A stretch of 17,986 nucleotides of DNA from IMG/VR virus record IMGVR_UViG_2667528065_000005; one strand, written 5' to 3'. The DNA comes from a virus (lineage: Duplodnaviria > Heunggongvirae > Uroviricota > Caudoviricetes). The translations under genes were made by a program, and so were the position numbers. The notes beneath the pieces were generated by a model. That model searched no databases. It saw only the letters and a list, made by a program, of their open reading frames with translations, and was not told the origin of the DNA. Of the stretch, positions 546-15,970 are shown piece after piece. How positions within the stretch are numbered: position 1 is the stretch's first letter; each line of letters starts with the position of its first letter.

Positions 546-2288
546 ATGATGAAAGTATTAATTGTTGAAAGCGAGTTTCTCCATCAAGACACCTGGGTCG
601 GTAACGCCGTTGAGCGTCTGGCAGATGCTTTAAGCCAGCAAAATGTTACCGTGATTAAATCCACCTCCTTTGATGATGGTTTTGCCATTCTCTCTTCAAA
701 CGAAGCCATTGACTGCCTGATGTTCAGCTATCAAATGGAACATCCGGACGAACATCAAAACGTCAGACAATTGATCGGTAAGCTTCATGAGCGCCAACAA
801 AACGTGCCGGTCTTCCTGTTGGGCGATCGGGAAAAAGCCCTCGCCGCAATGGACCGGGATCTGCTGGAGCTTGTCGATGAATTCGCCTGGATTCTGGAAG
901 ATACCGCCGACTTTATCGCCGGACGCGCCGTTGCCGCGATGACCCGCTACCGCCAGCAGCTATTGCCGCCACTGTTCAGCGCGCTGATGAAATATAGCGA
1001 CATCCATGAATATTCCTGGGCAGCGCCAGGCCACCAGGGCGGCGTTGGTTTTACCAAAACACCCGCCGGACGTTTCTACCATGACTATTATGGTGAAAAT
1101 CTGTTCCGCACCGACATGGGTATCGAACGCACTTCCCTCGGTTCTTTGCTTGACCATACTGGCGCATTTGGCGAAAGCGAAAGATATGCCGCACGCGTAT
1201 TTGGTGCCGATCGCTCCTGGTCGGTAGTCGTCGGTACTTCCGGCTCTAACCGCACCATCATGCAGGCTTGCATGACCGATAACGATGTAGTGGTCGTTGA
1301 CCGTAACTGCCATAAATCCATCGAACAAGGCTTGATGCTGACAGGCGCGAAACCGGTCTACATGGTGCCAAGCCGCAACCGCTACGGCATTATCGGGCCA
1401 ATCTATCCGCAGGAAATGCAACCTGAAACCTTGCAGAAGAAAATCAATGAAAGCCCGCTGACCAAAGACAAAGCCGGGCAAAAACCGTCTTACTGCGTGG
1501 TGACCAACTGCACCTATGACGGCGTGTGTTATAACGCTAAAGAAGCACAGGATCTGCTGGAAAAAACCTCCGATCGTCTGCACTTTGACGAAGCCTGGTA
1601 CGGCTATGCACGTTTCAACCCGATCTATGCCGATCACTATGCCATGCGCGGCGAACCTGGCGATCACAACGGTCCTACCGTTTTCGCCACCCACTCCACC
1701 CACAAACTGCTGAATGCGCTGTCACAGGCCTCTTATATTCATGTACGTGAAGGTCGTGGGGCGATTAACTTCTCCCGCTTCAACCAGGCCTACATGATGC
1801 ATGCCACCACCTCCCCGCTGTATGCCATCTGCGCATCCAACGACGTGGCGGTGTCGATGATGGACGGCAACAGCGGCCTGTCACTGACCCAGGAAGTGAT
1901 CGACGAAGCGGTTGATTTCCGTCAGGCGATGGCGCGGCTATATAAAGAGTTCACCGCTGACGGTAGCTGGTTCTTCAAACCGTGGAACAAAGAAGTCGTC
2001 ACCGACCCACAAACCGGCAAAACCTATGACTTTGCTGACGCACCAACCAAACTGCTGACCACCGTTCAGGACTGCTGGGTCATGCATCCGGGCGAAAGCT
2101 GGCACGGCTTCAAAGATATTCCGGATAACTGGAGTATGCTCGACCCGATTAAAGTCAGCATCCTTGCTCCGGGAATGGGTGAAGATGGTGAACTGGAAGA
2201 AACCGGTGTTCCGGCGGCGCTGGTCACAGCCTGGCTTGGTCGCCACGGCATTGTGCCTACCCGTACCACTGACTTCCAGATTATGTTC

Positions 2289-2320
2289 CTGTTCTCTATG
2301 GGCGCTGTTCTCTATGGGCG
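2289..2320. repeat. Perfect 16-bp tandem duplication (ctgttctctatgggcg x2) inside adiA; +1 frameshift
   Basis: Read directly: unit at 2289-2304 repeated at 2305-2320. Confidence 0.95.
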
Positions 2321-2367
2321 TGACCCGTGGGAAATGGGGGACTCTGGTTAACACCCTTTGCTCCTTC

Positions 2368-2409
2368 AAACGCCACTATGATGCCAACAAACGCCACTAT
2401 GATGCCAAC
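2368..2409. repeat. Perfect 21-bp tandem duplication (aaacgccactatgatgccaac x2) inside adiA; in-frame, duplicates KRHYDAN
   Basis: Read directly: 2368-2388 repeated at 2389-2409. Confidence 0.95.
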
Positions 2410-2436
2410 ACACCGCTGGCGCAGGTGATGCCGGAA

Positions 2437-2480
2437 CTTGTTGAACAATATCCTGACACTTGTTGAACAATATCCTGACA
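2437..2480. repeat. Perfect 22-bp tandem duplication (cttgttgaacaatatcctgaca x2) inside adiA; frameshift
   Basis: Read directly: 2437-2458 repeated at 2459-2480. Confidence 0.95.
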
Positions 2481-2501
2481 CTTACGCGAACATGGGGATT
2501 C

Positions 2502-2549
2502 ACGATCTGGGTGACACCATGTTTGACGATCTGGGTGACACCATGTTTG
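2502..2549. repeat. Perfect 24-bp tandem duplication (acgatctgggtgacaccatgtttg x2) inside adiA
   Basis: Read directly: 2502-2525 repeated at 2526-2549. Confidence 0.95.
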
Positions 2550-2562
2550 CCTGGCTGAAAGA

Positions 2563-2628
2563 AAACAACCCTGGCGCACGGTTGAATGAAGCCTAAAACA
2601 ACCCTGGCGCACGGTTGAATGAAGCCTA
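2563..2628. repeat. Perfect 33-bp tandem duplication inside adiA; the junction creates a TAA stop in the reading frame in use at that point
   Basis: Read directly: aaacaaccctggcgcacggttgaatgaagccta at 2563-2595 repeated at 2596-2628. The junction gcc|taa gives a stop at 2594-2596. Confidence 0.95.
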
Positions 2629-2637
2629 TTCCGGCCT

Positions 2638-2677
2638 ACCGGTGGCGGAAATCACCTCACCGGTGGCGGAAATCACC
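2638..2677. repeat. Near-tandem duplication, 19-nt core (accggtggcggaaatcacc) with period 21 and a 2-nt difference at the junction, inside adiA
   Basis: Read directly: copies at 2638-2656 and 2659-2677 separated by tc. Translates as VAEIT..VAEIT. Confidence 0.9.
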
Positions 2678-2781
2678 CCGCGTGAAGCGTACAACGCGAT
2701 TGTCGACAACAATGTCGAACTGGTATCCATTGAAAATCTGCCAGGACGTATCGCGGCAAACTCAGTTATCCCGTATCCGCC

Positions 2782-2816
2782 AGGAATCCCGATGCTGTCT
2801 AGGAATCCCGATGCTG
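2782..2816. repeat. Imperfect tandem duplication, 16-nt core (aggaatcccgatgctg) with period 19, inside adiA; net frameshift
   Basis: Read directly: copies at 2782-2797 and 2801-2816 separated by tct. Confidence 0.9.
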
Positions 2817-2988
2817 CTGTCTGGTGAAAACTTCGGCGATAAAAACAGTCCGCAAGTAAGTTATTTACGCTCGCTGCAATCCTGGGACCATCATTTCCCT
2901 GGATTTGAACACGAAACAGAAGGGACAGAAATTATTGACGGTATTTACCACGTTATGTGTGTGAAAGCGTAACCACTATTCCGCTGAA

Positions 2989-3015
2989 GGCGTAATTGTT
3001 AAATAACATTACGCC
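2989..3015 (+). terminator. Hairpin just downstream of the adiA stop (8-bp stem ggcgtaat/attacgcc with a partly self-complementary loop)
   Basis: Inverted repeat read directly; only a short T-run follows (ttttaag after a second short GC element). Confidence 0.4.
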
Positions 3016-3089
3016 GCCTGGCTTGAGGCCTTTTAAGTATGGCAACGTTTTCATAAAAATTGCTGCAAACAAAAAATGTCATGCTTTTT

Positions 3090-3117
3090 GCGCGGTCCCA
3101 CCCCGCGCTTTTTTTTG
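3090..3117 (+). terminator. Rho-independent terminator-like element: GC stem gcgcgg/ccgcgc, 7-nt loop, then a 9-T run
   Basis: Read directly: gcgcggtcccaccccgcgc followed by ttttttttt. Confidence 0.55.
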
Positions 3118-3593
3118 CCTGTTATTTATCCTTTTTTTAGCCTGTAAAAAAATATGTATCATGAGAAATTAGCCTATAAAAATATGTAATATTAGTAAAA
3201 CTCGTTATTTTTATGCATGTTTATATTCATCATACAATTATATAACCATTTCCCGGTATCGCTTCGCTTTAGCGAGAACTGGTCTTTTATTCGCACTCAG
3301 GAGTACATGTATGAGGATTTGCAGCGACCAACCTTGTATTGTTTTATTGACTGAAAAAGATGTCTGGATAAGGGTGAATGGGAAAGAACCTATTAGCCTT
3401 AAAGCTAACCACATGGCGTTATTAAATTGTGAAAATAATATTATCGACGTCTCCTCTCTTAATAACACTTTGGTTGCTCATATTAGTCACGACTATGCAT
3501 GCAAAGATTACCTCACGACATCATCAAAGATAACATCCGGTCTCGCAAATACCAGTATGGCAACGTAGCGCTACGCCCATCCTCACCCTTCCA

Positions 3594-3646
3594 TGCCTGA
3601 CGCCAGACGTCTTTCGCGTCTGCCTGACGCCAGACGTCTTTCGCGT
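3594..3646. repeat. Near-perfect 27-bp tandem duplication in adiY (26/27 identical); in-frame, duplicates CLTPDVFRV
   Basis: Read directly: tgcctgacgccagacgtctttcgcgt at 3594-3619 and 3621-3646. Confidence 0.95.
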
Positions 3647-3799
3647 TGCCGCGCAGCATAGCATGATGCCCGCTGAAACTGAGTCAGAAAAGGAACGAAC
3701 ACGTGCATTATTATTCACTGTGCTATCCCGTTTTCTCGACAGTAAAAAATTCCTTTCACTAATGATGTATATGTTACGTAATTGTGTAAGTGACAGCGT

Positions 3800-3841
3800 T
3801 TATCAAATTATTGAAAGCGATTATCAAATTATTGAAAGCGA
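3800..3841. repeat. Perfect 21-bp tandem duplication in adiY (ttatcaaattattgaaagcga x2); duplicates YQIIESD
   Basis: Read directly: 3800-3820 repeated at 3821-3841. Confidence 0.95.
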
Positions 3842-4267
3842 TATCCACAAAGACTGGAATCTTAGTATGGTAGCCAGTTGTTTATGTCTTAGCCCAAGTC
3901 TGTTAAAGAAAAAGCTGAAAAGCGAAAACACCAGTTATAGCCAAATAATCACCCACCTGCCGCATGCGTTATGCCGTAAATGAATTAATGATGGACGGTA
4001 AAAATATCTCTCAGGTATCACAGTCCTGCGGCTACAACAGTACGTCGTACTTTATTTCTGTCTTTAAAGACTTCTACGGTATGACGCCGCTGCATTATGT
4101 TAGTCAGCACAGAGAACGCACTGTCGCCTGATTTTTAACCTTAACGAAGAGCTATATTAATAACGGCATCAGCGATAACCCGGCCGATAATAATTCAACT
4201 ATCGAATGCAGGCGTATGATATGACGTAATTTATTGTCACGAAGCTCGCCTTCGCAGGAGTTTAATT

Positions 4268-4777
4268 ATGTCTTCGGATGCTGATGCTCACAAAGTGGGC
4301 TTAATCCCCGTCACCCTGATGGTGTCGGGGAATATTATGGGGTCAGGTGTTTTTCTGTTACCTGCAAACCTGGCCTCCACTGGCGGGATTGCTATTTATG
4401 GATGGTTGGTGACGATTATCGGTGCGCTGTCGGTGCGCTGGGGCTCTCGATGGTATACGCCAAAATGTCGTTCCTCGACCCAAGTCCTGGTGGTTCTTAC
4501 GCTTACGCCCGCCGCTGCTTTGGCCCGTTTCTCGGTTATCAAACCAACGTCCTCTACTGGCTGGCCTGCTGGATCGGCAATATCGCCATGGTGGTCATTG
4601 GCGTAGGATATTTAAGTTACTTCTTCCCGATTCTGAAAGATCCATTGGTATTAACCATCACCTGCGTCGTGGTGCTGTGGATCTTCGTCCTGCTGAACAT
4701 TGTCGGTCCGAAAATGATCACCCGCGTACAGGCCGTTGCTACCGTGCTGGCGCTGATCCCCATCGTCGGGATTGCCG
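4268..4777 (+). pseudogene. adiC: Arginine:agmatine antiporter AdiC, 5' portion only; frameshifted by an 11-bp tandem duplication and cut off by the prophage junction
   Basis: [54 protein letters not shown] in frame 2, then ...[47 protein letters not shown]...IPIVGIA in frame 1. Coding sequence diverges into unrelated DNA after about 4777. Confidence 0.85.
4419..4440. repeat. Perfect 11-bp tandem duplication (tcggtgcgctg x2) in adiC; frameshift
   Basis: Read directly: 4419-4429 repeated at 4430-4440. Confidence 0.95.
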
Positions 4778-4782
4778 GAGGG

Positions 4783-4935
<153 letters not shown>

Positions 4936-4944
4936 TTGCAGATA

Positions 4945-5334
4945 TTACTCTTTTTTCTCCGTATCTGCATCGGGTTCATCAGCAAATAGCTTGCCCTGCA
5001 TCCGATCCAGTTCTTCTTTTCTTACCCGCTTAACCACGCTGTAGACCCACTGAAGCGAAACACCAAATTTGCGGGCCAGTTCGTGGTGGTTGCGTCCGTT
5101 AAACTCCCTGAAGATTTCCCGGTCGCGCTGACTGACCTTCCATACCATGCCCATCGGGAAATAAACGTTTTGCCCGCCCCAGACCTGCATCATTCGGTTC
5201 GCGACGGCCTGACCAATCTGGTCGGCAACTTCGGGCTCAATATCAATAATCTCGCGAACGGTCTCAGAGGTATGCTGTGCCAGTTCCACCAGGAGTTCCG
5301 GCCCCTTACTTCGAAACTGATTCAGGTCGCTCAT
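4945..5334 (-). CDS. mor: Mor/C-family phage transcriptional activator
   Basis: 129 aa. C-terminal ...GGQNVYFPMGMVWKVSQRDREIFREFNGRNHHELARKFGVSLQWVYSVVKRVRKEE matches the recalled Mu Mor pattern (GGGQVYIPRG...RD..I...FNGRN..EL...YGV....VYK..RR). Confidence 0.75.
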   Translation of the reverse strand: MSDLNQFRSKGPELLVELAQHTSETVREIIDIEPEVADQIGQAVANRMMQVWGGQNVYFPMGMVWKVSQRDREIFREFNGRNHHELARKFGVSLQWVYSVVKRVRKEELDRMQGKLFADEPDADTEKKE

Positions 5335-5755
5335 GTTTGACTCCCGCAGCTCTGCGCTGCCACTTCTTCAGTTTCTCAATAACACTGCTTGCCTGTTCAG
5401 TACTGAGCCAGCGCAGGGCGCTGATGCCCGTTTCCCGCTTGATCCACCTCGCTAATGCATTTTCTGAACGGTCACGAACAATGCCGGCAGCAGCCATTTC
5501 AAGCCATAGCGCACGAATTTTCCTGGACTGCGGATGGTTATCAAGCGGTAAACCGGAGCTGGCTTTTCTGGCTGGTTTAACGCGAAAGCCTTTCTTTTTC
5601 ATGGATTCCAGCACGCAGTTTAGTTGTGTGGTATCCATTCCTTTGGTTGAGGCTTTACCGGTCAGCCCCTGTAACATCTGGCGGTAGGTGTCTTCATCCA
5701 TACCCAGTTCATTACGGGCAATATGGATAAGCTGTATCAGGCGTTTTTTCTGCAT
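5306..5755 (-). CDS. gemA: GemA-like phage protein (Mu gp16 / DUF1018 family)
   Basis: 149 aa. N-terminal LIQLIHIARNELGMDEDTYRQMLQGLTGKAS...GF pattern typical of GemA-family proteins. Overlaps the mor start by 29 bp. Confidence 0.65.
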   Translation of the reverse strand: MQKKRLIQLIHIARNELGMDEDTYRQMLQGLTGKASTKGMDTTQLNCVLESMKKKGFRVKPARKASSGLPLDNHPQSRKIRALWLEMAAAGIVRDRSENALARWIKRETGISALRWLSTEQASSVIEKLKKWQRRAAGVKHERPESVSK

Positions 5756-5756
5756 A

Positions 5757-5963
5757 TCATCTCCTTTTTTTCAGTCTGTCGGCAACAATGTCGGTTGCAG
5801 CTGGCAGGGTGACTGGCCAGAACAACATGACGGCGGTCATGTACAGGATGTAATGCGCGGTGTCGTAGTGCCTGCCATAGCCCAGGGAACGATGAAGTCT
5901 TGCGCTGCATGATCCTGCGTACATATACCAGAAAAGAAAACAGACAATGGTTTCAGTAGTCAT
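5757..5963 (-). CDS. Small hydrophobic protein (about 68 aa, two predicted TM segments), hypothetical
   Basis: Internal ATG at 5963 preceded by a GGGGAGG Shine-Dalgarno. The longer 120-aa frame would overlap the upstream gene. Confidence 0.4.
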   Translation of the reverse strand: MTTETIVCFLFWYMYAGSCSARLHRSLGYGRHYDTAHYILYMTAVMLFWPVTLPAATDIVADRLKKRR

Positions 5964-6183
5964 TCTGAATACCTCCCCATTCGATATGAATATTACGGGC
6001 AGCAATGACAGGGTCGTTATTCCACCATGCACCTGACATGTATTTTTCAACCTGTTCGCGTCCGGCAATAACACCAATTGTGATCCCCGGCCTGACGTTC
6101 TTAAAAAAGGCGCGGGCAAAAAGGTATCTGGCAGATATTCGGCAGGCTTTTAATTTCCGGCTTTTACCTGATAGCGTAATCAT
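5953..6183 (-). CDS. Hypothetical phage protein (76 aa)
   Basis: ATGA start/stop overlap with the upstream gene at 6180-6183 and a GGAGG upstream; fits tight operon packing. Confidence 0.45.
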   Translation of the reverse strand: MITLSGKSRKLKACRISARYLFARAFFKNVRPGITIGVIAGREQVEKYMSGAWWNNDPVIAARNIHIEWGGIQNDY

Positions 6184-6863
6184 CTGGCCTCCAGTTTCTG
6201 TTGTTCCTGCCCACTGACCGGGCGGTGCAGTCTGACGTTCTGCCCTTCACGAAACCCCGCATAGCGCGAGGCGTCGCCATTGCGGCTTCTTCCCGGTTTA
6301 CGCGCCCTGGTGGTTTGCGTCTGCGGGTATTTATGTTCCAGCCACTGCTGCATCAGTTCACGCTCATCATCGGTCAGGGCAAAGGACTGTATTTCACTGA
6401 TAACGGCCAGCACCCAGCCTTCGGCAAACTGGTCTCCACGGCTGGTGCGGGTGGCGGTTTTTATTCTTTTGTTCTGTGCACTGATATACTGCTGACGCGC
6501 CTTTTTCAGCTGACGGGCCAGCACTTCCCAGGTGTATGCAGCCAGTGCCGCACGTTCCCGGTTGCCGTAGAACCCCACAGACGGATGCGTGCCGGGGTGA
6601 ATGATGGAGTTAACACCAAATACCTCGCGGATGATGTTCATCAGGCCCAGCATGTAGCGCGGTGGACGGAGACTGCCTGTCGGCCAGTAGTGACTGATGG
6701 TTTCATCAATATCACTCATAGCAATGTCGGAATGTGTGATGCCGTGAACATCCATCAGTTTACGGGCTCGGCGCAGTGCCAGAGCGGCCTCGTGCGGGTT
6801 GCCGGATGCGGCCAGCGCCAGCAACTTTTTCAGTTTCTCAATGTGTTTATTCTGGTCTGTCAT
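6180..6863 (-). CDS. Hypothetical phage protein with DUF2786-like N-terminus
   Basis: Translation from the internal Met (MTDQNKHIEKLKKLLALAASGNPHEAALALRRARKLMDVHGI...) resembles the DUF2786 N-terminal pattern. ATGA overlap with the upstream gene at 6860-6863; an alternative start at 6899 is possible. Confidence 0.5.
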   Translation of the reverse strand: MTDQNKHIEKLKKLLALAASGNPHEAALALRRARKLMDVHGITHSDIAMSDIDETISHYWPTGSLRPPRYMLGLMNIIREVFGVNSIIHPGTHPSVGFYGNRERAALAAYTWEVLARQLKKARQQYISAQNKRIKTATRTSRGDQFAEGWVLAVISEIQSFALTDDERELMQQWLEHKYPQTQTTRARKPGRSRNGDASRYAGFREGQNVRLHRPVSGQEQQKLEAR

Positions 6864-7075
6864 TGTTCTGTATCTCCGGTATTTTTCTGCCGTTTCCATG
6901 CCCGGACAGCGTCGGACAGCTCTTTCAGGCTGTATGCTGCTTTAAGCTTTTCCCATAACCACTGTGTTGTTATGTGCATCAGCAGGGCAGCCAGGGCTGC
7001 CCCCGCACTGAGGCATGTCGCCAGGCCAGTAAGAATCAGTGTCCATGCGGTGATTTCCCTGAGTATGTCAGCCAT
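6860..7075 (-). CDS. Small membrane protein (71 aa), hypothetical
   Basis: Hydrophobic stretch WTLILTGLATCLSAGAALAALLM; packed in the operon. Confidence 0.45.
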   Translation of the reverse strand: MADILREITAWTLILTGLATCLSAGAALAALLMHITTQWLWEKLKAAYSLKELSDAVRAWKRQKNTGDTEQ

Positions 7076-7089
7076 TGAATGCCTCCCGG

Positions 7090-7386
7090 TTACTCGTTCG
7101 TGTAAATCACGCCCAGTCGTGCAGCCAGACGTTCCAGTTTTTTCTGTTTGTGGAAGTCAATCAGCCGGTCCATCCCCTGAAGGCGCAGTTGCTCTGTCAT
7201 GATTTCCACGTCTGCCAGCTCTGCCGCGAGGTCACTTTCGCTGCCCTGTCCGTTCAGGTTGCGGGCGGCACTGGCCGCCAGTTCAGCGGCCTCTTCTGCC
7301 AGTTTCAGGGCCTGTGCGTCCGGCCCGAAACGCTGCAGGGCCAGACGGTAGAGGGCGGTGCGGGTGAGTTCGGTGTTTCGTGTCAT
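7090..7386 (-). CDS. MazG-like nucleotide pyrophosphohydrolase domain protein (small all-alpha NTP-PPase)
   Basis: 98 aa with LKLAEEAAELAAS ... ELADVEIMTEQL, resembling the EExxE...E/D metal-binding motifs of MazG-like NTP pyrophosphohydrolases. Confidence 0.5.
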   Translation of the reverse strand: MTRNTELTRTALYRLALQRFGPDAQALKLAEEAAELAASAARNLNGQGSESDLAAELADVEIMTEQLRLQGMDRLIDFHKQKKLERLAARLGVIYTNE

Positions 7387-7395
7387 GCCGCGCCC

Positions 7396-7668
7396 TCAGT
7401 GCTTCCGGCTGACGGTGATGTGCAGGCCGCCTTCTGCAGTGGTTTCCATCCGGTACGGCACCTCATGCTCTGCCGTGTGGGTGAGTGTGTTCATCAGTAC
7501 CTGCAGGGCAGCCTCCTTTCCGTTGGTCGCCACAATGGCCTGTGTGGCCATGCTGATTAGCGCCGTCAGGACGTGCTTCACATCGGTGAGGTCGCGGCAT
7601 TCACACTCGTTGACATAGTGTTCAACAAGAGTTCGGGTGCGCTGTCGTGCTTCCTGTGGGGTAATCAT
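7396..7668 (-). CDS. Hypothetical phage protein (90 aa)
   Basis: ORF in operon register; 4-bp overlap with the upstream gene. Confidence 0.45.
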   Translation of the reverse strand: MITPQEARQRTRTLVEHYVNECECRDLTDVKHVLTALISMATQAIVATNGKEAALQVLMNTLTHTAEHEVPYRMETTAEGGLHITVSRKH

Positions 7669-7859
7669 TGCGCGTCCTCCCTGTCAGGGCGGGAGAATTC
7701 CATGACGGGCACGTCCGCCGAAAAATGCTGGCTGCAGTACGGGCAGACCAGGGTGACACGTACTGCAGGTATGTGATACTTACCGGACATCACGGCGATG
7801 GCGCTGTGAAAACGCAGGGCTGTTATATCCCTCTCGCACTGAATACATTTAAATATCAT
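7665..7859 (-). CDS. Small zinc-ribbon-like protein (CxxC...CxxC), hypothetical
   Basis: 64 aa with KCIQCE ... VCPYCS cysteine pairs. Confidence 0.45.
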   Translation of the reverse strand: MIFKCIQCERDITALRFHSAIAVMSGKYHIPAVRVTLVCPYCSQHFSADVPVMEFSRPDREDAQ

Positions 7860-7956
7860 AATTTAATTCTCCTCTGTTTCCGGCGTGCAGAAGCCCGCGG
7901 CGCTGACGCCGGAATAAAAAAGAAAATGTTTTTATTAAATAATTAACGTGGTGTGT

Positions 7957-8487
7957 TTACTGCACATCCTGCTCAAAAGGAATTATTGAAAAATCCTCAA
8001 TATCACTTTTTATGGTAATACCGGGAATATTTTTCACAGCCTCTTTTTCATTCAGAATGGCATCTTTATTTATTTCCTCCTTTACACGAATAAAGCGCTC
8101 AAGCCCCAGACGTCTCAGCAGTTCAATGACATTATCCGCCCCGCGAATGCTGACTGACGGCGGACGGTTTCGCCACTGCACCTCGCCGGTGGTGAGGTTA
8201 GCGAACTTCACCTTCCCGTTGCCGGTCAGTTCATCACGGTGCGCCTCACACCATGTCTGGATACCGGACTGCAGTTCGGCCATGCGTTTTTTCAGGCTCT
8301 CGGTGAGCGGGGCATAACGTGCAGTGATGTCGCCAATGGTGTCATTCATTTCTGTTTCAGCCCTGACCAGTTCACGTTGCGCGTCACCAAGCAGTCTGAT
8401 TCCCTCAATGACCTCTTCGCGTGTCCCCGGCACCCAGAGTGCTGCTGCGGCTTTGATACGTTTTGCCCCTTTTGTACTTTTTGCCAT
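7957..8487 (-). CDS. gam: Host-nuclease inhibitor Gam (Mu Gam-like DNA-end-binding protein)
   Basis: 176 aa. MAKSTKGAKRIKAAAALWVPGTREEV...TEMNDTIGDIT...WCEAHRDELTGNGKVKFANLTTGEVQWRNRPPSVSIRGADNVIELLRRLGLERFIRVKEEINK...GITIKSDIEDFSIIPFEQ aligns along its length with the recalled Mu Gam. Confidence 0.85.
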   Translation of the reverse strand: MAKSTKGAKRIKAAAALWVPGTREEVIEGIRLLGDAQRELVRAETEMNDTIGDITARYAPLTESLKKRMAELQSGIQTWCEAHRDELTGNGKVKFANLTTGEVQWRNRPPSVSIRGADNVIELLRRLGLERFIRVKEEINKDAILNEKEAVKNIPGITIKSDIEDFSIIPFEQDVQ

Positions 8488-8514
8488 ATTTTATGACTCC
8501 TCCTGTTGTGCTGA

Positions 8515-8784
8515 TTACCACAAAGATTCCGGCCACACGACGCGACAGCCGTGCAGTTCGAAAACGCCCTGACGGAAATGTCCCCTGTGGTCATGACCGG
8601 TATACAGATAACAGGCCTTTCCCTGCTCAAGCATGCGCATGCAATGCGCACTCCGGGAAACGCGGATGACAGGTTTGTTACCCCTGATGGTGATGCTTTG
8701 TACATCCGTGTTCGTCGCCTTAAGCGCCATAATGGCTGACTGCACTTTGCTGATTTGCTGGTTGATACCTGTGGTGGATTTCAT
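8515..8784 (-). CDS. Hypothetical phage protein (89 aa) between the MuB-like gene and gam
   Basis: ORF in operon register, 2 bp after the B-like stop. Confidence 0.45.
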   Translation of the reverse strand: MKSTTGINQQISKVQSAIMALKATNTDVQSITIRGNKPVIRVSRSAHCMRMLEQGKACYLYTGHDHRGHFRQGVFELHGCRVVWPESLW

Positions 8785-8786
8785 TA

Positions 8787-9953
8787 TTAAACCCCTTTGA
8801 CAACGTCAGCGTTGACCTGTGGAACCCCGATTTCAGCGGCCAGATTCATGGCGGCTATTACCAGGTTACTGACGGCCAGCGGATACAGCAGGCTGACCAT
8901 ATTTTTACGATGACTTCCCGGATTGCTCAGGCGGGCACGTATGGCATCCACTGCGCTGGCGTCCATAATGTCCGTCAGTTGTTTACCGGCCCGTTGCAGT
9001 TTGAACGTCAGAAACTCTTCAAGGTTATTGTCCAGAGGCAGAAGTTCGACCACCTCACAGCGCTGAACGACTTCACGGACTTCCATATTGCGTTCAGACA
9101 GTTTTGTCGCCAGTTCCGGCTGGCCAATCAGCACGATGGACAGCAGTTTTTTGAAACCGGACTCCAGCTCAAAAAAGCGTTTGAGGTGTTTCAGTGTCGG
9201 AATGGGCAGACTGTGGGCCTCCTCAATCACCAGAACGTGGCTGAACCCCGCCTGGCTGCTGTCTTTCAGGACGCGATGCAACTGGCGAAAGCGGGCGTCC
9301 TGACTGCGTCTGATGCTTTCCAGTGGTGCGATGGTACTGATAATGGCTTCGGCAATCGCTGCTGCCTTCAGGGTTTTCCCTTTCACATCGTTGTCTTCCA
9401 TAGCGATGATGTATGGCTCGATAACAATTACCGGCGCATTCTCGCGGTTGATACGTTCAGTCAGGTCGCGGCGCAGCGTGGATTTACCCGCACCGGACTC
9501 ACCGATGACGGCCATAAACCCACCATGACGGGCTGTCTGGTACAACGCCTCACGCACGTAGCGAATATCCGGGGTGGTGAACACATCATCAGAACCCTGC
9601 ATGGCTTCGTCGGCGAACGGGTCACGGAAAAGACCAAACGCTTTTTTGGTTGCTGGAAATAACACCTGTTTTTTGAGTAACATATTCTCTTCCTCACTGA
9701 GGCTCGTTTTATCTGTGGTACCCGCTGTACGGGGCGTGGCCGCGCCCTGTACAGCATCAAAACTCTTCGTTGTATCAATCCCCTGACTTTCCAGCCAGGA
9801 CGCAAGACGCCGGCGCACTTCTCCGGGGCTGGTGCGGGGCCACGCGTTATGATTCACAATCTGGGCCAGCGTGGCCTCAGAAACATCGACAGCTCTCGCC
9901 ACCACCGCCTGTGGAATACGGGCCTCTTTCAGTTGCTGCTTCAGTACCAGCAT
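8787..9953 (-). CDS. MuB-like AAA+ ATPase (transposition target/activator protein)
   Basis: Walker A GESGAGKST and Walker B HVLVIEEAH; N-terminal HTH-like region. Likely start is the ATG at 9953 with GGAGGG upstream (the longest frame extends to 9992). Immediately downstream of the transposase gene. Confidence 0.8.
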   Translation of the reverse strand: MLVLKQQLKEARIPQAVVARAVDVSEATLAQIVNHNAWPRTSPGEVRRRLASWLESQGIDTTKSFDAVQGAATPRTAGTTDKTSLSEEENMLLKKQVLFPATKKAFGLFRDPFADEAMQGSDDVFTTPDIRYVREALYQTARHGGFMAVIGESGAGKSTLRRDLTERINRENAPVIVIEPYIIAMEDNDVKGKTLKAAAIAEAIISTIAPLESIRRSQDARFRQLHRVLKDSSQAGFSHVLVIEEAHSLPIPTLKHLKRFFELESGFKKLLSIVLIGQPELATKLSERNMEVREVVQRCEVVELLPLDNNLEEFLTFKLQRAGKQLTDIMDASAVDAIRARLSNPGSHRKNMVSLLYPLAVSNLVIAAMNLAAEIGVPQVNADVVKGV

Positions 9954-9963
9954 GTTTCCCTCC

Positions 9964-11733
9964 TCAGTTGCCGTTAACAATGCTGATAACACTGCTGCGG
10001 GCCGGTGTGGTCAGCGTGGCCATGACTTCATCCAGTGCGGCTTCCGGTACGCCGTCCGGGTACTGTGCCGTTAACTGGCGGTAATGTTCCGGCGTCCAGG
10101 TAAGGCCGTCGGCGCTGAACTTATCGCGCAGGGCTTTCGCGGCCTCCACATGAGTCATGGGACGTTGTTCAGTGCGCGGCCCGCGTACGTCAGAGGCCTG
10201 ACCACGCTTCGGCATATAGGCCGGAAGTGTGGTGTCGTCGATATGTTTATACGGGTCAAGCCGCCCGCCGAACGGCAGCGCCTTCGCCTTGCGTGCGGCG
10301 GCTGCATCTGCGGCGTTGTCTGTACCGGTAACCAGCGCTTCGGTTTCTTTTGCCGCCATCTGTGCCGGGGTTTCCGGCAGGGCTTTGTAACTTTCGCCAA
10401 ATACCGCCGCGCCTTCAGCAAAGCCAAACTCGTTCTTTCTGACCTCTTCGACCAGGAAGAACGTCTCGTGGCCGTCCTCACCGGTCAGAACCACCTGTGC
10501 CACATCGCTGCGCCATGGGTTACGGGTAATCATCAGTTTTTCACCAACCAGTACGCCCGGTACCGTTGATACGTCAAATTCAGTGCCCCGGAACGAGACA
10601 CGAAGTTTTGGCGTGACTTTGCGGAGTTCTGGTGCCGCCACAGCCAGTTCACGACATACCTCAACGGAAGGCGCTTTTTTCAGCTGCTCAGCAGTAATCT
10701 TCAGCCAGATATCCGTGCGGGTTTTACCGTGGCGGCTGTGAACAGCCGTGGCGTTAAAGTGGCTGCGCCATTTCGCGGCCAGCGCGTTGAGTTCTTCCAG
10801 ACTGTGAACCGGCCGGAACTTCAGACCCGGCTCCAGCTTGCGTTCGATAATGTCACGCGCCTTTTCCACCTGTCCGGTGGCGCGGGCGTTATGCGGCTTG
10901 TGCGCTATCAGGTCAATGCCCAGTGAGCGGCACATGTTTTTCGTCATACCCGCGGTGTTTGCCGAACCGGGGTCGAGATAGAGTATTTTTGGCACGCCGT
11001 GCAGCACGTCTGCGCCGCCACGCTCCTGCATGGCGTTGATAAGCACAGAACACAGGTTCTCACCGGATTCCGCACCCGTCACATACTCAACGTAAATCCA
11101 GCCGCTGGCATGGTCGGTAATCTCGTAACTCCACACGCGGTCACTGGCGATACGGGCAAGGTTAGCGGGTTTGTTCTTGTAGAACTTCGCGCTGTCCATC
11201 ACCTGCAGCCCTTTGTGTCCATTGCTCAGGTAGTAAAGCGTGCAGAGCGAGGCATCAATCTGCCAGACATGATTGGGATGCAGACTGGCCACTTCGGTAT
11301 GCGGCGCAGGAGCATCCAGTTGTTCCGGGTGCAGGCCATAGTTACGCAGGGCACGACTGATGGCATCTTCGGACAACGGGAAAAACTCACCGGTGGTTTC
11401 ATCTGTTCTGCCTGCGGAGATAAAGCCGTTAGCCCGCAGGGTTTCCACTGCATCCGCGATGGAATAGAGACGCTTACCGTTCTTGCGGGTGGCCTCACGC
11501 AGTGTGGCAGATATCAGCGCGGCTTCGTCGCGGGTCAGGGCGCTGCGTCCGGCATCAGCGCGTTTTTTGCGTTTATCAGTCACAGAGACCTCCTTCAGCC
11601 TGCGCAGCAGAGTGGCGCGGGACATGCCAAGTTCAGCACAGGCAGCGTCGTATATTGCACCGCGTTTACCATGCCCCGCGTCACGTGCCGCGCGGGCGAC
11701 ATAAACCAGTCGTTCAGTCAGGGCAGCATTCAT
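9964..11733 (-). CDS. DDE transposase (Mu A-like / rve-fold)
   Basis: 589 aa. N-terminal HTH-like region, then candidate catalytic residues in HVWQIDAS, LYLDPGSANT and NARATGQVEK. GGAGG upstream of the start. Confidence 0.8.
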   Translation of the reverse strand: MNAALTERLVYVARAARDAGHGKRGAIYDAACAELGMSRATLLRRLKEVSVTDKRKKRADAGRSALTRDEAALISATLREATRKNGKRLYSIADAVETLRANGFISAGRTDETTGEFFPLSEDAISRALRNYGLHPEQLDAPAPHTEVASLHPNHVWQIDASLCTLYYLSNGHKGLQVMDSAKFYKNKPANLARIASDRVWSYEITDHASGWIYVEYVTGAESGENLCSVLINAMQERGGADVLHGVPKILYLDPGSANTAGMTKNMCRSLGIDLIAHKPHNARATGQVEKARDIIERKLEPGLKFRPVHSLEELNALAAKWRSHFNATAVHSRHGKTRTDIWLKITAEQLKKAPSVEVCRELAVAAPELRKVTPKLRVSFRGTEFDVSTVPGVLVGEKLMITRNPWRSDVAQVVLTGEDGHETFFLVEEVRKNEFGFAEGAAVFGESYKALPETPAQMAAKETEALVTGTDNAADAAAARKAKALPFGGRLDPYKHIDDTTLPAYMPKRGQASDVRGPRTEQRPMTHVEAAKALRDKFSADGLTWTPEHYRQLTAQYPDGVPEAALDEVMATLTTPARSSVISIVNGN

Positions 11734-11736
11734 TGG

Positions 11737-12648
11737 TTATGCCTCCAGCCCGTTAATCTGTGGCGTCGGCTCAGTCAGCCATGAAGGCGCGGCATTGCCT
11801 GTTGGCTCATCCGGCAGGTCAAATGTGGAGCGCAGGCTACGCGCTGTGCTTTCCAGTTGACAGACCAGGCCTGCCATGAAGTCTCTGGGGGTATCAATCA
11901 TGTTTTCAGCACAATATGCGCACAGCGTCTCAAAAGCGCTGGACAGTCGAACGGCGATAGCAGATTCCGCCTCAACCGCTAATGCTGTCACTTCCGCCCG
12001 CAGCTTCTTAACCTCTTCATCAGGCTCAGGCGGCTGAATACGGGATTTCTTCTCCAGTCTGGTGGAGAGTGAGTCTATTTTTTCATTTTTGTCAGCGAGT
12101 ACGCGCTGTTGTGCTGCGTTGGTTTCGCGCGCTTCGCGCAGGGCCTGACGCAATTCACGTACTGACATGCGATCAACGTCGTCAAGCGTCAGGCCGGCAA
12201 CTGTGCCGCCGTCGGCCAGTTCGGCAAGCTCTTCGTCGTCTTCTGTCATTAATTCGAAAAGTTTGGCTTTTCCCAAATGTGCCAACGTTGGCACATTTGG
12301 TTTCAGCGCCGGGGATAAGTATTTTGTCGATGCTTGCATCATTCTCACAGATGTCCGGTATGCCAGCCCCAACTCACTTTCAAGAATCTTTATAAACTCC
12401 CCGTGTGGTTCATTTTCCTTAAGGATTATCAGCCGCTTACCTGCCTCCAGCATGGCCTCAGCGCTCTGTGCCATATAAAAGCGTGCCTCATGGACAACAC
12501 GATCGCGCTCATAGGGCAGACCATCGCCGAACTGTTGCATGATTTCCATGCGATGCTGTGTCATGGCGTTTAGACTGACATTGAGATCATCCGACAGCGG
12601 TACCTCGACGTTCAGTTCAGTGCTAACCGGTGATTTGGTGCGTCCCAT
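11737..12648 (-). CDS. Hypothetical phage protein (303 aa) with a coiled-coil-like acidic central region
   Basis: Long ORF with AAGGAG upstream of the start; lies between the Ner-like genes and the transposase. Confidence 0.55.
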   Translation of the reverse strand: MGRTKSPVSTELNVEVPLSDDLNVSLNAMTQHRMEIMQQFGDGLPYERDRVVHEARFYMAQSAEAMLEAGKRLIILKENEPHGEFIKILESELGLAYRTSVRMMQASTKYLSPALKPNVPTLAHLGKAKLFELMTEDDEELAELADGGTVAGLTLDDVDRMSVRELRQALREARETNAAQQRVLADKNEKIDSLSTRLEKKSRIQPPEPDEEVKKLRAEVTALAVEAESAIAVRLSSAFETLCAYCAENMIDTPRDFMAGLVCQLESTARSLRSTFDLPDEPTGNAAPSWLTEPTPQINGLEA

Positions 12649-12658
12649 TGATTACTCC

Positions 12659-12967
12659 TTACAAACGACTACCTGAAATAACACGTTGGTTGATTTCGTT
12701 AATGCGATCCTGTGCACGTGCCATCTCGTTACTGTGGGCCATGGCGATCTGCAGCAACTGGATGCCTGGTGCGAAACGCCCGTTTTCTAGTTTCAGAGCC
12801 AACCCTTCTTCAATGAGCGTGTTAAGTGCCCGGTTGATGTTTGCCGGTGATTCGTGCAGTGCAACCGCTAGTTCCCCGTTAGAAACACCGTTCAAAGCGT
12901 GGCCACGTAAGGCCTTAAGAACGCGCAAAATACGGGTACCTGAGCTTGATGTATTTGGTTTATTCAT
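12659..12967 (-). CDS. Winged-helix/HTH DNA-binding protein (102 aa)
   Basis: GTRILRVLKALRGHALNGVSNGELAVALHESPANINRALNTLIEEGLA resembles an HTH of the IclR/MarR type. 4-bp overlap with the upstream gene. Confidence 0.5.
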   Translation of the reverse strand: MNKPNTSSSGTRILRVLKALRGHALNGVSNGELAVALHESPANINRALNTLIEEGLALKLENGRFAPGIQLLQIAMAHSNEMARAQDRINEINQRVISGSRL

Positions 12968-13188
12968 GACGCCTCCTTAAGGATACCGGGGGTAACTTCT
13001 TTACCTATTGCAACCGATAGATCTCGCAAAATCCGATAAGTCAAACGACCGCGAGGTAGTTCACTTTTACCAGCCCAGCGACTGACTGCCTGGGTGACTG
13101 TTCGTGGTTCATAGCCCGCGTTAAGCGCGAACTGGCGCAAGCTACTGCCTCGTTCAACCAGCCGTGCCCGAACTTGTTGTTTGTTCAT
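12964..13188 (-). CDS. ner: Ner-like DNA-binding protein (Ner/Nlp family)
   Basis: VRARLVERGSSLRQFALNAGYEPRTVTQAVSRWAGKSE matches the recalled Mu Ner pattern (ADVIAGLKKRKLSLSALSRQFGYAPTTLANALERHWPKGE). Divergent from the repressor gene. Confidence 0.65.
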   Translation of the reverse strand: MNKQQVRARLVERGSSLRQFALNAGYEPRTVTQAVSRWAGKSELPRGRLTYRILRDLSVAIGKEVTPGILKEAS

Positions 13189-13276
13189 ATGCACCGTGTT
13201 CCTGTTAGGTTATGATGTACTCTATTGGGTCTATTGTACACACCCAAATGAGTGTGTCAAATTGAGATATGTTCAA
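13189..13276. promoter_or_regulatory. Divergent ner / repressor control region with candidate operators
   Basis: 88-bp gap between divergent genes. Contains inverted repeat ACACAC-N8-GTGTGT (13238-13257) and direct repeat tctattg x2 (13221-13236). Confidence 0.4.
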
Positions 13277-13684
13277 ATGAGTACAAAAGAGAGATTGCGT
13301 GAAGTGATGGATGCTAATGGCATGACAATAAAGGCATTATCTAACTTATCAAAAATTCCATATCGCTCACTTCAAAACTATTTGCGTGGAGAGAGAGAAC
13401 CAAACGCAGAGGCTCTTGTTGCGCTAAGCACCCATTTGGGTGTATCGATCGATTGGCTACTTACCGGTAAAGAACATATTCCATCTAAAGAAATTGTTGC
13501 TGTACCAACACAACATCAATTCAGCCCGTCAGACCTTAAAATGCTTGAACTTCTAAACCAGTTAGATCCTGAGGTTCGGCGAGATCTCATGCGAGGCGCT
13601 GAAGAAAAACAGCGTGTGATTGAGATGGAAAAACAACTGAAGGAATTATCCGCAACGATTGAGCGGTTAAAAAATGTGGGTTAA
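13277..13684 (+). CDS. XRE-family (Cro/CI-type HTH) phage repressor with C-terminal coiled-coil
   Basis: MSTKERLREVMDANGMTIKALSNLSKIPYRSLQNYLRGEREPNAEALVALSTHLGVSIDWLLTG is a typical XRE HTH. Divergent from the early operon. The ORF track's longer frame starts at 13181, but that would overlap ner. Confidence 0.65.
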   Translation: MSTKERLREVMDANGMTIKALSNLSKIPYRSLQNYLRGEREPNAEALVALSTHLGVSIDWLLTGKEHIPSKEIVAVPTQHQFSPSDLKMLELLNQLDPEVRRDLMRGAEEKQRVIEMEKQLKELSATIERLKNVG

Positions 13685-13754
13685 TGTGTTCCTAACGAGA
13701 ACATATAGCAGAAATTATTTGCCATTAAGCAATAAAAAATAAGGTGGATAGCTA

Positions 13755-14762
13755 ATGTCTGAGCAGACCATTGAAGTTAAACACGTTGTAGTTCACATTT
13801 TAGACAAACAACAAAATGGAGACGCTTCTGAGAGATTGAGTCCTGAAGAAGGTCTAGTTACTGAAGCCTCCCAGCGCCTTATAAACGATATTTGTGCAAA
13901 ATATGCAGGACGCACAGGTAAAGGTTATGGCTATTTTGAAGGCGATACGGATAACTATCCTATGGAACGAATGGCTGGGGACTTTCTCGAAGGTGTTGAT
14001 GATTTCTACCAAAGTTCCTGCCGAATGATGCATCACCTGACGGAACGTTCTCAGCGAGAAAACATGGCTACTGGTGGTTATGTTCTTTTTGCAAATATCG
14101 TGATAGGACACAATGAACACCTGTTGATAGCTATTGTAAGCGCTACCATTGGATCCACTGTCACAGATGATTTTAACATCCAAGATAGTACCTATCTTGA
14201 TATTGCTAAGCTGCGTATGGCTGGGCGCATTGACTTAACCGCGTGGGAAAGTGGCGCAGAGCGCTATATCAGTTTTCTTAAGGGGCAAGGTAATGTTTCA
14301 AACTATTTTAAACAGTTCCTCGGCTGTAATGATGTCTTAATCGCCAAACGAGAGTCTGAAAAGTTACGTGACGTTTTAAAAGCATTTGCGGCAGAGAAAG
14401 GACTTGACGGCGCTGAAAAAGATGCATTTCTTAAGAGTGCGTTTGAACACTTACATGCACTAAGTAAGGCTGGTGAACCACTTAGTCTTGAAACCCTTGT
14501 TAATGCCATTTGGCCCCAGGCTCCCGAGGAGTTATCTGGTAAACTTGCTGCTGAAGAGTTGGAGTTATCGGATGGCTTCGTTCCTGATGGTCGAGTCATT
14601 CGGGCTCTGGTATCTTTTAAAGGCAAGTCTAAATATTGGGAACTTAAGTTTGACCGGGAAGGGAAAACTGAAGGCTATATTGATTATGATCCGGAAACAA
14701 ATATTATCACCCTACGTAATGTACCTGAAGAATTTAGGGAAATGTGGATGACTGAGGTTTAA
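13755..14762 (+). CDS. Divergent YejK/NdpA-family nucleoid-associated protein homolog (335 aa), prophage cargo
   Basis: Shared blocks with recalled E. coli YejK along the whole length: GGYVLFANIVIGHNEHLLIAIV, YLDIAKLRMAGRIDLTAWE, YISFLKGQ, YFKQFLGCNDVLIAKRE...AEKGLDGAEKDAF, ITLRNVPEEFRE. AAGGTGG Shine-Dalgarno before the ATG. Confidence 0.65.
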   Translation: MSEQTIEVKHVVVHILDKQQNGDASERLSPEEGLVTEASQRLINDICAKYAGRTGKGYGYFEGDTDNYPMERMAGDFLEGVDDFYQSSCRMMHHLTERSQRENMATGGYVLFANIVIGHNEHLLIAIVSATIGSTVTDDFNIQDSTYLDIAKLRMAGRIDLTAWESGAERYISFLKGQGNVSNYFKQFLGCNDVLIAKRESEKLRDVLKAFAAEKGLDGAEKDAFLKSAFEHLHALSKAGEPLSLETLVNAIWPQAPEELSGKLAAEELELSDGFVPDGRVIRALVSFKGKSKYWELKFDREGKTEGYIDYDPETNIITLRNVPEEFREMWMTEV

Positions 14763-14764
14763 TC

Positions 14765-15970
14765 GTGGCGATTTCATTTGAGATGCTGACAGATCTGTAT
14801 CGTCGTATGGAATTCCAAGAGGGGTTTCGTGTCGGTTCGCTGTTGCTCTTAGATCAGTCCGATTGTGATCTGGTTGATACTTTGCTTGATGATCCTCGTG
14901 AATATGGTCTTTCTATTGATACAGGCACTATCGCTCCAGGTAACACGATCATCCTACGTGTGACGTCACCACGGAGTGGACTGGGACTTGTGTTTTCCAC
15001 CCATGAAAAATTGCTAAATGCTCCAAAGCATCAGTGCCTTGAGCCAGCTAATTACTTCATCCTAGAAACAAAGTTTCGTAATGATGATGAAGATATCCCC
15101 GTTTTCATCAGCAACTACCGGAAGATTCTCGAGTTCGTTAACCTGCTAAAAGAGGCCGCGGCCTACTTTGATAACTCAACTTGTCAGTTAGTTTTTCTGA
15201 AAAAAGAAGTTATCAAGCTATTACCGCACTTCGCTGCAGAAAATGTACAAAATTTGCAAAGAGAGTATCTTGATAACCTTATAGCTTGTTTCAATGATGA
15301 TACCCATAAGGATCAGAAGCTAGATATTCTGATTGAAAGTATCCAAGCAGTTAGTGATGGAATTGATTCACCTCTAGTATTCGCTTATTTACTGGACAAT
15401 ATTCAGCGTCTGCATGAAAAGTTTCTGAAAGGGTATCGTATCTACTCTTCTGGATTCTCTTATGACAAAGTAATGGATCAACTGCGTGCTGCAAAAGTCG
15501 AAGAAATGGGTAAAATCCACAAAGCGTTTTCAGATATCCAGAACCATATACTTGGCATTCCTGTTGCCTCTGTTATCGTAGCTACCCAATTCAAAGTGGC
15601 TACGAAATGGTCAGGCCAAGGGATAACAAACACAATAATTCTTCTGGGATGCATTTTTGCTGCAACGTTAATCTGGCTGGCACTTTCGAACCAGATGCAA
15701 TCTATAAAGGCCTTAGGCGAAGAAATTGAATACAAAGAAAAACAGATTAATAAGGAATATTCCTTCATTAAAGATGACGTGGCTGGTGTATTTAGCAGTA
15801 TTTCTGCGCGACTAGACACGCAGAAACGTACGTTCTGGATTATACGTGGTGTTCTAGTTATGGGAATTATTACCGCTATCACTGTTTATTTTTGGTACAC
15901 AAAACCAGCCCTTGACTTCATGCAGTACTTGATTCACTGCATGAAGTCTTACTATTCGGTCAAAAGTTGA
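14765..15970 (+). CDS. Hypothetical 401-aa protein: soluble N-terminal region plus two or three C-terminal transmembrane helices; coupled to the YejK-like gene
   Basis: GTG start 2 bp after the upstream stop with GAGGT upstream (an alternative ATG lies at 14783). Hydrophobic helices TNTIILLGCIFAATLIWLAL and FWIIRGVLVMGIITAITVYFWY. No family recognised. Confidence 0.6.
   Translation: MAISFEMLTDLYRRMEFQEGFRVGSLLLLDQSDCDLVDTLLDDPREYGLSIDTGTIAPGNTIILRVTSPRSGLGLVFSTHEKLLNAPKHQCLEPANYFILETKFRNDDEDIPVFISNYRKILEFVNLLKEAAAYFDNSTCQLVFLKKEVIKLLPHFAAENVQNLQREYLDNLIACFNDDTHKDQKLDILIESIQAVSDGIDSPLVFAYLLDNIQRLHEKFLKGYRIYSSGFSYDKVMDQLRAAKVEEMGKIHKAFSDIQNHILGIPVASVIVATQFKVATKWSGQGITNTIILLGCIFAATLIWLALSNQMQSIKALGEEIEYKEKQINKEYSFIKDDVAGVFSSISARLDTQKRTFWIIRGVLVMGIITAITVYFWYTKPALDFMQYLIHCMKSYYSVKS

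Follow-up and report, generated by a model that had tools for sequence, protein, structure and literature searches.

A conserved stem-loop downstream of gam in Mu-like phages, a candidate regulatory element of the early mRNA

The hairpin located between gam and the following gene in the early operon of a Mu-like prophage belongs to a family of stem-loops that, judged from the sequences, are conserved with compensatory changes, keep a fixed orientation in the transcript and have the make-up of neither a terminator nor a promoter. Most likely the hairpin tunes the expression of the next gene rather than stopping transcription. The explanation that we favour, tentatively and as something short of probable, is a cis-acting intercistronic mRNA stem-loop that would control translation of the downstream gene, the processing and stability of the mRNA, or both. 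Phage Mu, which carries a member of the family, has long been studied, yet the gap after its gam gene (98 nt) has no annotation in the GenBank records and no Rfam family. Open-access text contained no mention of the hairpin (older Mu papers may contain one), and the conserved gam-downstream family is apparently undescribed. An intercistronic mRNA hairpin is ordinary in kind and of interest mainly to Mu specialists and to curators of RNA families; the family, phage Mu included, could be defined as a new RNA family and be put to direct test.

The hairpin in the early operon

The DNA analysed (the window, a stretch of 17,986 nucleotides) carries the early operon on its minus strand, in the order transposase, ExeA-like B, gam, zinc-ribbon gene, further genes, GemA and Mor. 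Genes for DNA-binding proteins stand at the head of the operon. The DDE transposase (9964-11733), the ExeA-like ATPase B (8787-9992) and an 89-aa gene (8515-8784), which lies between the ATPase gene and gam, are followed by gam itself (7957-8487), the cistron upstream of the hairpin. It encodes a host-nuclease inhibitor (Pfam PF07352 Phage_Mu_Gam, E=1.1e-40) and is called Gam in both the PhiKM and the RefSeq annotation. The downstream cistron (7665-7859; RefSeq WP_000576352.1) codes for a 64-aa CxxC...CxxC zinc-ribbon protein for which homologues were found. Several small genes and GemA separate it from Mor (4945-5334) at the prophage end; all these genes are on the minus strand.

According to the list of open reading frames, the gap between gam and the zinc-ribbon gene (7860-7956, 97 bp) is the longest in the operon, as the initial annotation had stated; all other gaps are of 27 bp or less, or the genes overlap. 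The same annotation had placed the hairpin upstream of gam. This holds in plus-strand coordinates only: the operon is read from the minus strand, so that the hairpin follows gam and belongs to the 5' leader of the zinc-ribbon gene. Along the transcript, 42 nt separate it from the preceding stop codon of gam and 18 nt from the start codon of the zinc-ribbon gene. The Mor-proximal prophage end is about 3 kb away from it, the head of the operon about 5.3 kb.

Reading of the sequence and an inverted-repeat scan confirmed that the hairpin is real and that its 9-bp stem was correctly placed: the arms TTCCGGCGT (7878-7886) and ACGCCGGAA (7906-7914) are 9 nt long, 100% complementary and 19 nt apart. 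The 19 nt had been described as a loop, and they do separate the arms; they are predicted to be folded rather than open, however, as CAG/CUG and GCC/GGC helices. On the minus strand the GC-rich core stem-loop (7878-7914) thus consists of the stem UUCCGGCGU/ACGCCGGAA, these two inner helices and a GYG apical loop. Six of the nine stem pairs are G-C, and the predicted energy of the core is about -22 kcal/mol.

The core is predicted to be enclosed by an outer helix. Its 5' arm is the U-rich tract AUUUUCUUUU (7918-7927, minus strand), which is part of a conserved island; its 3' arm, AGAGGAGAAU (7866-7875, minus strand), includes the Shine-Dalgarno sequence (SD) of the zinc-ribbon gene. A conserved AAACAG motif (7872-7877, minus strand) precedes the SD and overlaps this 3' arm. 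The pairing AUUUUCUUUU:AGAGGAGAAU was found in both the minimum free energy and the centroid structure, and core plus outer helix would form a composite helix of about 25 bp with internal loops. For the whole structure the calculated dG was -29.5 kcal/mol (z = -3.7), and none of 200 shuffled sequences folded as well. The predicted probability of the SD region being unpaired was 0.12, the lowest of 16 starts in the operon; the values for the other 15 were 0.27-0.76. The initial annotation had missed this likely link, suggested by the modelled folds, between the hairpin and the SD of the downstream gene. Taken together, the gap (7860-7956, minus strand) is a 97-nt intercistronic module made up of an AT-rich spacer, the U-tract, the hairpin, AAACAG and the SD, and is homologous to the gam-gp11 gap of Mu.

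Annotations of the hairpin region are in conflict. The PhiKM record has a plus-strand CDS spanning it (XRL29420.1; window 7668-7946, plus strand; 8326-8547 in L001), and RefSeq has the 64-aa zinc-ribbon gene on the minus strand (7665-7859). In favour of the minus-strand gene are its conserved CxxC...CxxC pattern, its SD and homologues with identities as low as 25%. A perfect 10-bp inverted repeat (7732-7741 / 7759-7768, CTGCAGTACG / CGTACTGCAG, 17 nt apart) was also noticed within the zinc-ribbon CDS; the next gene, whose start (7668) overlaps this CDS, begins about 65 nt farther downstream.

A stem-loop family of Mu-like phages

With the zinc-ribbon protein, not the RNA, as query, the same hairpin was found in prophages of Erwinia, Pantoea, Mixta, Serratia, Trabulsiella and other genera. 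The loop motif occurs exactly in 49 IMG/VR contigs, 48 of which have the same phage context, and the window-type loop is almost invariant in several genera. In the sibling prophages found through the zinc-ribbon protein, the gene upstream of the hairpin is DUF3164, not gam. Alignment of gam-type with DUF3164-type phages gave a peak of about 92% identity over the U-tract, the hairpin and AAACAG, against 40-70% in the flanks, with a sharp fall at either edge of this conserved island; one stem pair has undergone a fixed compensatory change, C-G to U-A, between the two types. The U-rich tract is kept in gam-type, DUF3164-type and Mu-type copies alike. In all 45 variant leaders the SD region was predicted to be mostly paired (unpaired probability 0.12-0.56), in many of them with the U-tract.

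The genes on the downstream side vary as well. The hairpin also precedes zinc-ribbon genes only 25-31% identical to that of the window (L017, L069) and an unrelated 69-aa gene (L139/L140), which argues that it is not an operator matched to the zinc-ribbon protein. An autoregulatory operator of that protein, or a Com-like system, was rejected, since the hairpin is unchanged even where the protein is down to 25% identity or another has taken its place, and since the protein carries no Com domain.

Among the E. coli gam-type copies the hairpin has 5 segregating sites per 37 nt, a density like that of the flanks; the stem is thus under no special protection in this group, and the idea of it as a mutational hot spot was discarded on this ground. 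About one third of the copies in this sample have one mismatch or wobble in the 9-bp stem. Single-site transitions in the close relatives gave seven G.U and seven A.C sites; they were uninformative for assigning the strand, which becomes suggestive with the wider family only.

In sibling prophages that are otherwise collinear, the place flanked by the 89-aa gene and the hairpin module is taken either by DUF3164 (L004 2715-3326) or by Gam (window 7957-8487). This suggests that the two are interchangeable cassettes, possibly with analogous functions. The counterpart of the neighbouring 89-aa gene in E. coli FDAARGOS_1267 (L157 11856-12126) is annotated as frameshifted, which suggests decay in some copies of the prophage.

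The wider family includes phage Mu, whose gap after gam (Mup10) can be aligned to that of the window. It has the same AT-rich spacer and U-rich tract, then the stem GGCGCGA...UCGCGCC, UGAAACAG, a spacer, GAGGAA and the ATG. The same module with other stem sequences was found in SfMu, in a Mu-like insertion in an Stx2c phage and in many Mu-like contigs of IMG/VR. The order of its parts is a U-rich tract, a GC-rich stem GGCG.../...CGCC, AAACAG or AAUCAG (a 3' flank of the form (A/U)NCAG), SD and ATG, and the 3' edge of the hairpin is 5-12 nt from the SD in every copy.

A covariance model (R1) was built from 20 copies. It scored 59.4 bits for the window (7873-7917, minus strand), 58.6 bits for phage Mu and 26-57 bits for copies outside the training set, all of which lay on the coding strand. 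Among the copies that R1 recovered without having been trained on them are those behind a 63-aa gene, which stands two genes beyond gam (L189, L192, L194, L260 and L251), a second copy in L237 and three more gam-downstream ones (L255, L271 and L277). One Mu-like IMG/VR contig (L237) has two copies of the module (1355-1399 and 1971-2017), after gam and after the next gene. A loose pattern scan with GGCG-N4-6-CGTCAGGGGA returned mostly chance matches, of which 8 out of 80 passed the covariance model.

The inner stem pairs vary by lineage yet remain complementary. The 5' and 3' arms are GGCGCGA and UCGCGCC in Mu, GGCGUAAA and UUUACGCC in L189, GGCGUGA and UCACGCC in L194, GGCGCAAA and UUUGCGCC in L237b, and GGCGU and ACGCC in the window. 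In a set of 48 distinct copies, 87.4% of the stem cells were paired, and double (compensatory) changes were found in five of the ten pairs. Pair 13-34 was UA in 29 copies, CG in 18 and UG in one, and was unpaired in none. The covariation score was 0.26, as compared with 0.135 in shuffles (0 of 500 reached the observed value) and no more than 0.087 with slid partners, a difference whose significance the shuffle controls overstate because the sequences are related by descent. Covariation in the stem was seen in smaller sets of copies too. Owing to the shared ancestry, and to the fitting of the alignment (A7) to the structure of the model, the covariation figures are only supportive and do not represent a formal probability.

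Most members are capped by CAG-GGGA-YUG, a GNRA-type loop; the window type has a 12-nt GC-rich extension instead. The apical sequence CGUCAGGGGAYUG is common to most of the family, the tetraloops (GGGA or GAGA) contain GGA, and a second GGA is present in the SD about 30 nt downstream of the first. The module is absent from the Pseudomonas D3112-like phages, from B3 and KS10 and from some relatives in Xenorhabdus, Photorhabdus and Serratia, in all of which the genes abut; since such Mu-like relatives do without it, the module is dispensable. From these comparisons we propose a new RNA family, the gam-downstream stem-loop of Mu-like phages on the early-mRNA strand, of which the window copy is a member. 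In Mu-like phages of Pasteurellaceae (L160 1220-1296; L198, L201) gam is followed by an unrelated, very stable hairpin, ACGCCCCUU...AAGGGGCGU, and then by UCAG; it is not a canonical terminator.

A probable transcript element and its possible roles

The initial annotation had suggested RNA processing, attenuation or the binding of a protein as what the hairpin may serve. A transcript-level element in general agrees with the covariation in the 48 copies and with the constant orientation, and the sequence comparisons indicate that the hairpin quite probably acts as RNA. This reading draws on the asymmetric, oriented flanks (U-tract 5', CAG 3', always the same way round relative to transcription), on pairing that is kept over sequence, on nested inner helices and GNRA-type loops, both characteristic of RNA, and on the strand bias of the G.U pairs. 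The predicted hairpins contain 46 G.U pairs on the mRNA strand as opposed to 15 on the other strand, folding energies on the mRNA and the other strand were -15.8 and -6.6 kcal/mol for L237a, -16.6 and -8.1 for L185 and -18.6 and -11.5 for L239, and several diverged copies fold well on the mRNA strand only; in this comparison the sequences are not independent, and a few copies go the opposite way.

Classical attenuation, in contrast, was not borne out: neither strand has a U-tract or a terminator-like site, in the window or in Mu. The G+C-rich hairpin that an intrinsic terminator has in its transcript is present (9-bp stem, six G-C pairs), but a U-run 3' of the stem is not, the minus-strand RNA continuing with AAACAGAGGAG and the plus-strand RNA with AUAAAAAAGAAAA. 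The initial annotation was therefore right in noting no clear U-tract, as no T-run follows the stem on either strand. Terminator scans of the module were negative on both strands in the window, Mu and L189, and an intrinsic terminator was rejected for either strand. A simple consensus scan found no sigma-70 promoter in the module of the window, Mu or L189, neither within the AT-rich spacer nor directed outward from the hairpin on one strand or the other; hand inspection found no sigma-54 -24/-12 elements. The core of boxA is GCUC. The U-tract lacks it when compared by hand, and a nut-like boxA/boxB site was dismissed.

Comparison with known RNA classes gave no match. The best Rfam score for the window was 22 bits against a gathering score of 44 bits, with unrelated snoRNA and leader models, and nothing relevant was obtained for the Mu copy. 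A REP-like dispersed repeat was rejected, as there is one copy per prophage, a median of one place per E. coli genome and the same context in 48 of the 49 contigs. To our knowledge the hairpin does not resemble CRISPR repeats of type I-E or I-F, and a CRISPR-repeat mimic was rejected too.

A double-stranded DNA site, that is a palindromic protein-binding site or a cruciform serving transposition, replication or regulation, might account for the half-sites GGCG.../...CGCC, whose sequence is conserved in all copies, and for the close E. coli copies that tolerate A.C mismatches, equivalent to G.U on the other strand. It is nevertheless improbable, given that the flanks are asymmetric and always oriented with transcription, the centre-to-centre distance of the arms (28 bp) is not that of a typical dimer site, what the nested inner helices and the compensatory changes preserve is pairing and not sequence, and the G.U pairs favour the sense strand. 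The window has no second full copy either; half-site matches number 11 (4.2 expected) and are scattered, none of them paired. A strong gyrase site, an enhancer or a pac-type site was rejected by position, at the distances from prophage end and operon head given above. A transcription attenuator or terminator that lowers read-through to the distal early genes is a slim possibility: a stable GC-rich hairpin in an untranslated gap would be open to Rho or to pausing, but a U-tract after the hairpin is missing on either strand in the window, in Mu and in every family member, the terminator scan was negative, the AU-rich, C-poor gap is a poor loading site for Rho, and late transcription depends on Mor, whose gene is farther down this operon. 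As to chance, a 9-bp repeat within 40 nt is not beyond it, since such repeats are common and the window holds 21 of similar size; the repeat by itself being compatible with chance, its significance rests on position and conservation. A palindrome without function is very improbable in view of its conservation across Muvirus and BcepMu-like phages, the compensatory changes and the constant placement.

The favoured explanation, control of the downstream gene or of the mRNA by a cis-acting stem-loop, can be put as follows. The conserved module, of about 95 nt, stands between the transposition/Gam block and the accessory genes distal to it. The other genes of the operon abut or overlap their neighbours and can be translationally coupled, whereas the gene after the gap would have to recruit ribosomes itself. 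The very stable GC clamp would nucleate pairing of the SD with the U-tract upstream, and the longer helix so formed would limit or gate initiation at the zinc-ribbon gene. The same stable hairpin might serve as a barrier or a processing landmark and so give the flanking mRNA segments different stabilities. Masking of the SD in the window phage is suggested by thermodynamic prediction, and an effect on processing or stability is likewise something we infer. The masking helix is predicted in many leaders of the DUF3164 and SfMu types; in some, other pairings take its place, and Mu lacks it. A U-tract and a purine-rich SD will readily pair by chance. With masking predicted for many relatives and not for Mu, processing or stability may be the role common to the family. 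If the hairpin does govern translation or survival of the transcript beyond gam, it would determine the levels of the distal early genes, among them Mor, the activator of the late genes, and thereby affect the timing of lytic development.

Elements of comparable kind are known. Stabiliser hairpins occur between cistrons of bacterial operons, such as the REP/BIME between malE and malF and those of the puf and pap operons. Like these, the window hairpin is GC-rich, is about 35-45 nt long, occupies an untranslated gap of a polycistronic mRNA, lacks a U-tract and, by analogy, may be placed to separate the fates of the upstream and downstream segments; unlike them, it stands directly against the next ribosome-binding site, and it is neither a REP nor a dispersed host repeat, being found at one place per prophage. 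Leader hairpins that sequester the SD include the fourU RNA thermometers and the translation-inhibition stem of the Mu mom leader. In the predicted fold a U run pairs with the AGGAG of the next gene, as in fourU-type leaders, through G.U and A-U pairs stacked on a stable clamp; this masking helix differs in being predicted only and in not being conserved in Mu, and the difference from the mom leader is that the zinc-ribbon protein beside the window hairpin falls outside the Com family in Pfam. RNase III processing sites lie between genes of the T7 early operon, and RNase III needs two helical turns. The recurrence of sequence-related, irregular hairpins between early cistrons is shared with T7. 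Sites of the T7 early type comprise some 20 bp or more of duplex RNA, which may be interrupted; the predicted composite helix of the window is put at about 25 bp, but most members of the family have only about 7-10 bp and a further 3 bp, and in Mu and most relatives the total is about 10-13 bp, below two turns.

Two further readings concern what might use the hairpin. An operator for a sequence-specific RNA-binding factor, either of the phage or of the host (e.g. CsrA or RNase III), would control the adjacent ribosome-binding site and, by analogy, resemble Mu Com at the mom leader or CsrA two-site repression. The conserved apical CGUCAGGGGAYUG, with GGA in the loop and again in the SD, speaks for it, as does the near constancy of the window-type loop in several genera. 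In particular, a CsrA-like factor fits the GGGA or AGGA loops of the Mu-type copies, to judge by their sequence, but not the window-type loop CAGCGCCGYGGGCUUCUG, in which GGA is absent. As the latter has neither a GGA nor a GNRA loop, a single common ligand would need to recognise the stem only. The zinc-ribbon protein is excluded as the ligand, since it falls to 25% identity or is replaced next to an unchanged hairpin and has no Com-family match in Pfam, and the composite helix is predicted to reach about 25 bp in the window phage only, not in Mu. Such an operator, including its likeness to the Com or CsrA systems, is unlikely. A role as a recombination linker or mobile regulatory cassette, in which the module marks joints for the exchange of accessory genes and is conserved largely by repeated homologous exchange, is doubtful though less so, and it is compatible with an RNA function; the two are not exclusive. 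The module does lie at mosaic breakpoints: upstream stands gam, a second gam type, DUF3164 or the 63-aa gene, and downstream Mu gp11, zinc-ribbon genes (25-100% identity), the 69-aa gene or a gene for a small membrane protein. At either edge of the island the identity falls abruptly, and L237 has two copies. A precedent is provided by the PeSLs, mobile regulatory cassettes of T4-type phages, in which the joints between shuffled accessory genes likewise carry a short, conserved motif that is intergenic and includes a stem-loop (PMC2839356, PMC4122927). PeSLs, however, are promoter-terminator composites, whereas the module has no sigma-70 promoter detectable by the scan and its hairpin is not a terminator; most sampled genomes have only one copy, and recombination alone does not require compensatory stem changes.

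The hairpin is also an alignable marker of the joint at which Gam/DUF3164 cassettes and downstream accessory genes are exchanged in transposable phages. A broader and rather speculative view, which we hold to be on the unlikely side, would unite these roles in a mobile intercistronic RNA cassette of Muvirus (Mu, D108-like, SfMu) and BcepMu-like enterobacterial phages. Capped in most cases by a GNRA loop, it would be read by a host factor (e.g. CsrA or an RNase), set the timing or the level of the distal early genes including Mor, and double as a crossover point for accessory and anti-nuclease cassettes (Gam versus DUF3164).

Prophage and host sequences in the window

Positions 1 to about 4782 of the window are host DNA with an Orn/Lys/Arg decarboxylase and an AraC-type fragment, and a BcepMu-like transposable prophage extends from about 4783 onward, where BLAST homology to Escherichia phage PhiKM and to the prophage of E. 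coli FDAARGOS_1267 starts. Identity to these two over 4783-11721 is 98.8-99.5%. Tail genes at 1-4900, considered from the PhiKM annotation, were ruled out by the BLAST result for the left flank. A stretch of 341 nt around the hairpin was present in 637 of 5,426 complete E. coli genomes, i.e. about 12% carry the prophage, with a median of one place per carrying genome and always within the same prophage.

In the host part, the major domain of the Orn/Lys/Arg decarboxylase is encoded by a 601-aa open reading frame (546-2351) and the match to its C-terminal domain by a separate one (2619-2972), so that the gene may be frameshifted or interrupted. The AraC-type HTH fragment is at 3663-3983. In the prophage part, 12894-16019 is a variable cargo region that has no match in PhiKM or the FDAARGOS_1267 prophage. 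It encodes on the plus strand a CI-like HTH repressor (13181-13684), an NA37/YejK-like nucleoid-associated protein (13755-14762) and a 401-aa protein without a Pfam match (14765-15970), and is adjoined by a D12-class adenine methylase gene on the minus strand (15960-16730). A perfect 28-bp palindrome (12273-12300, CCAAATGTGCCAAC/GTTGGCACATTTGG) lies inside a 303-aa gene (11737-12648), the FDAARGOS_1267 counterpart of which is annotated as DUF3102.
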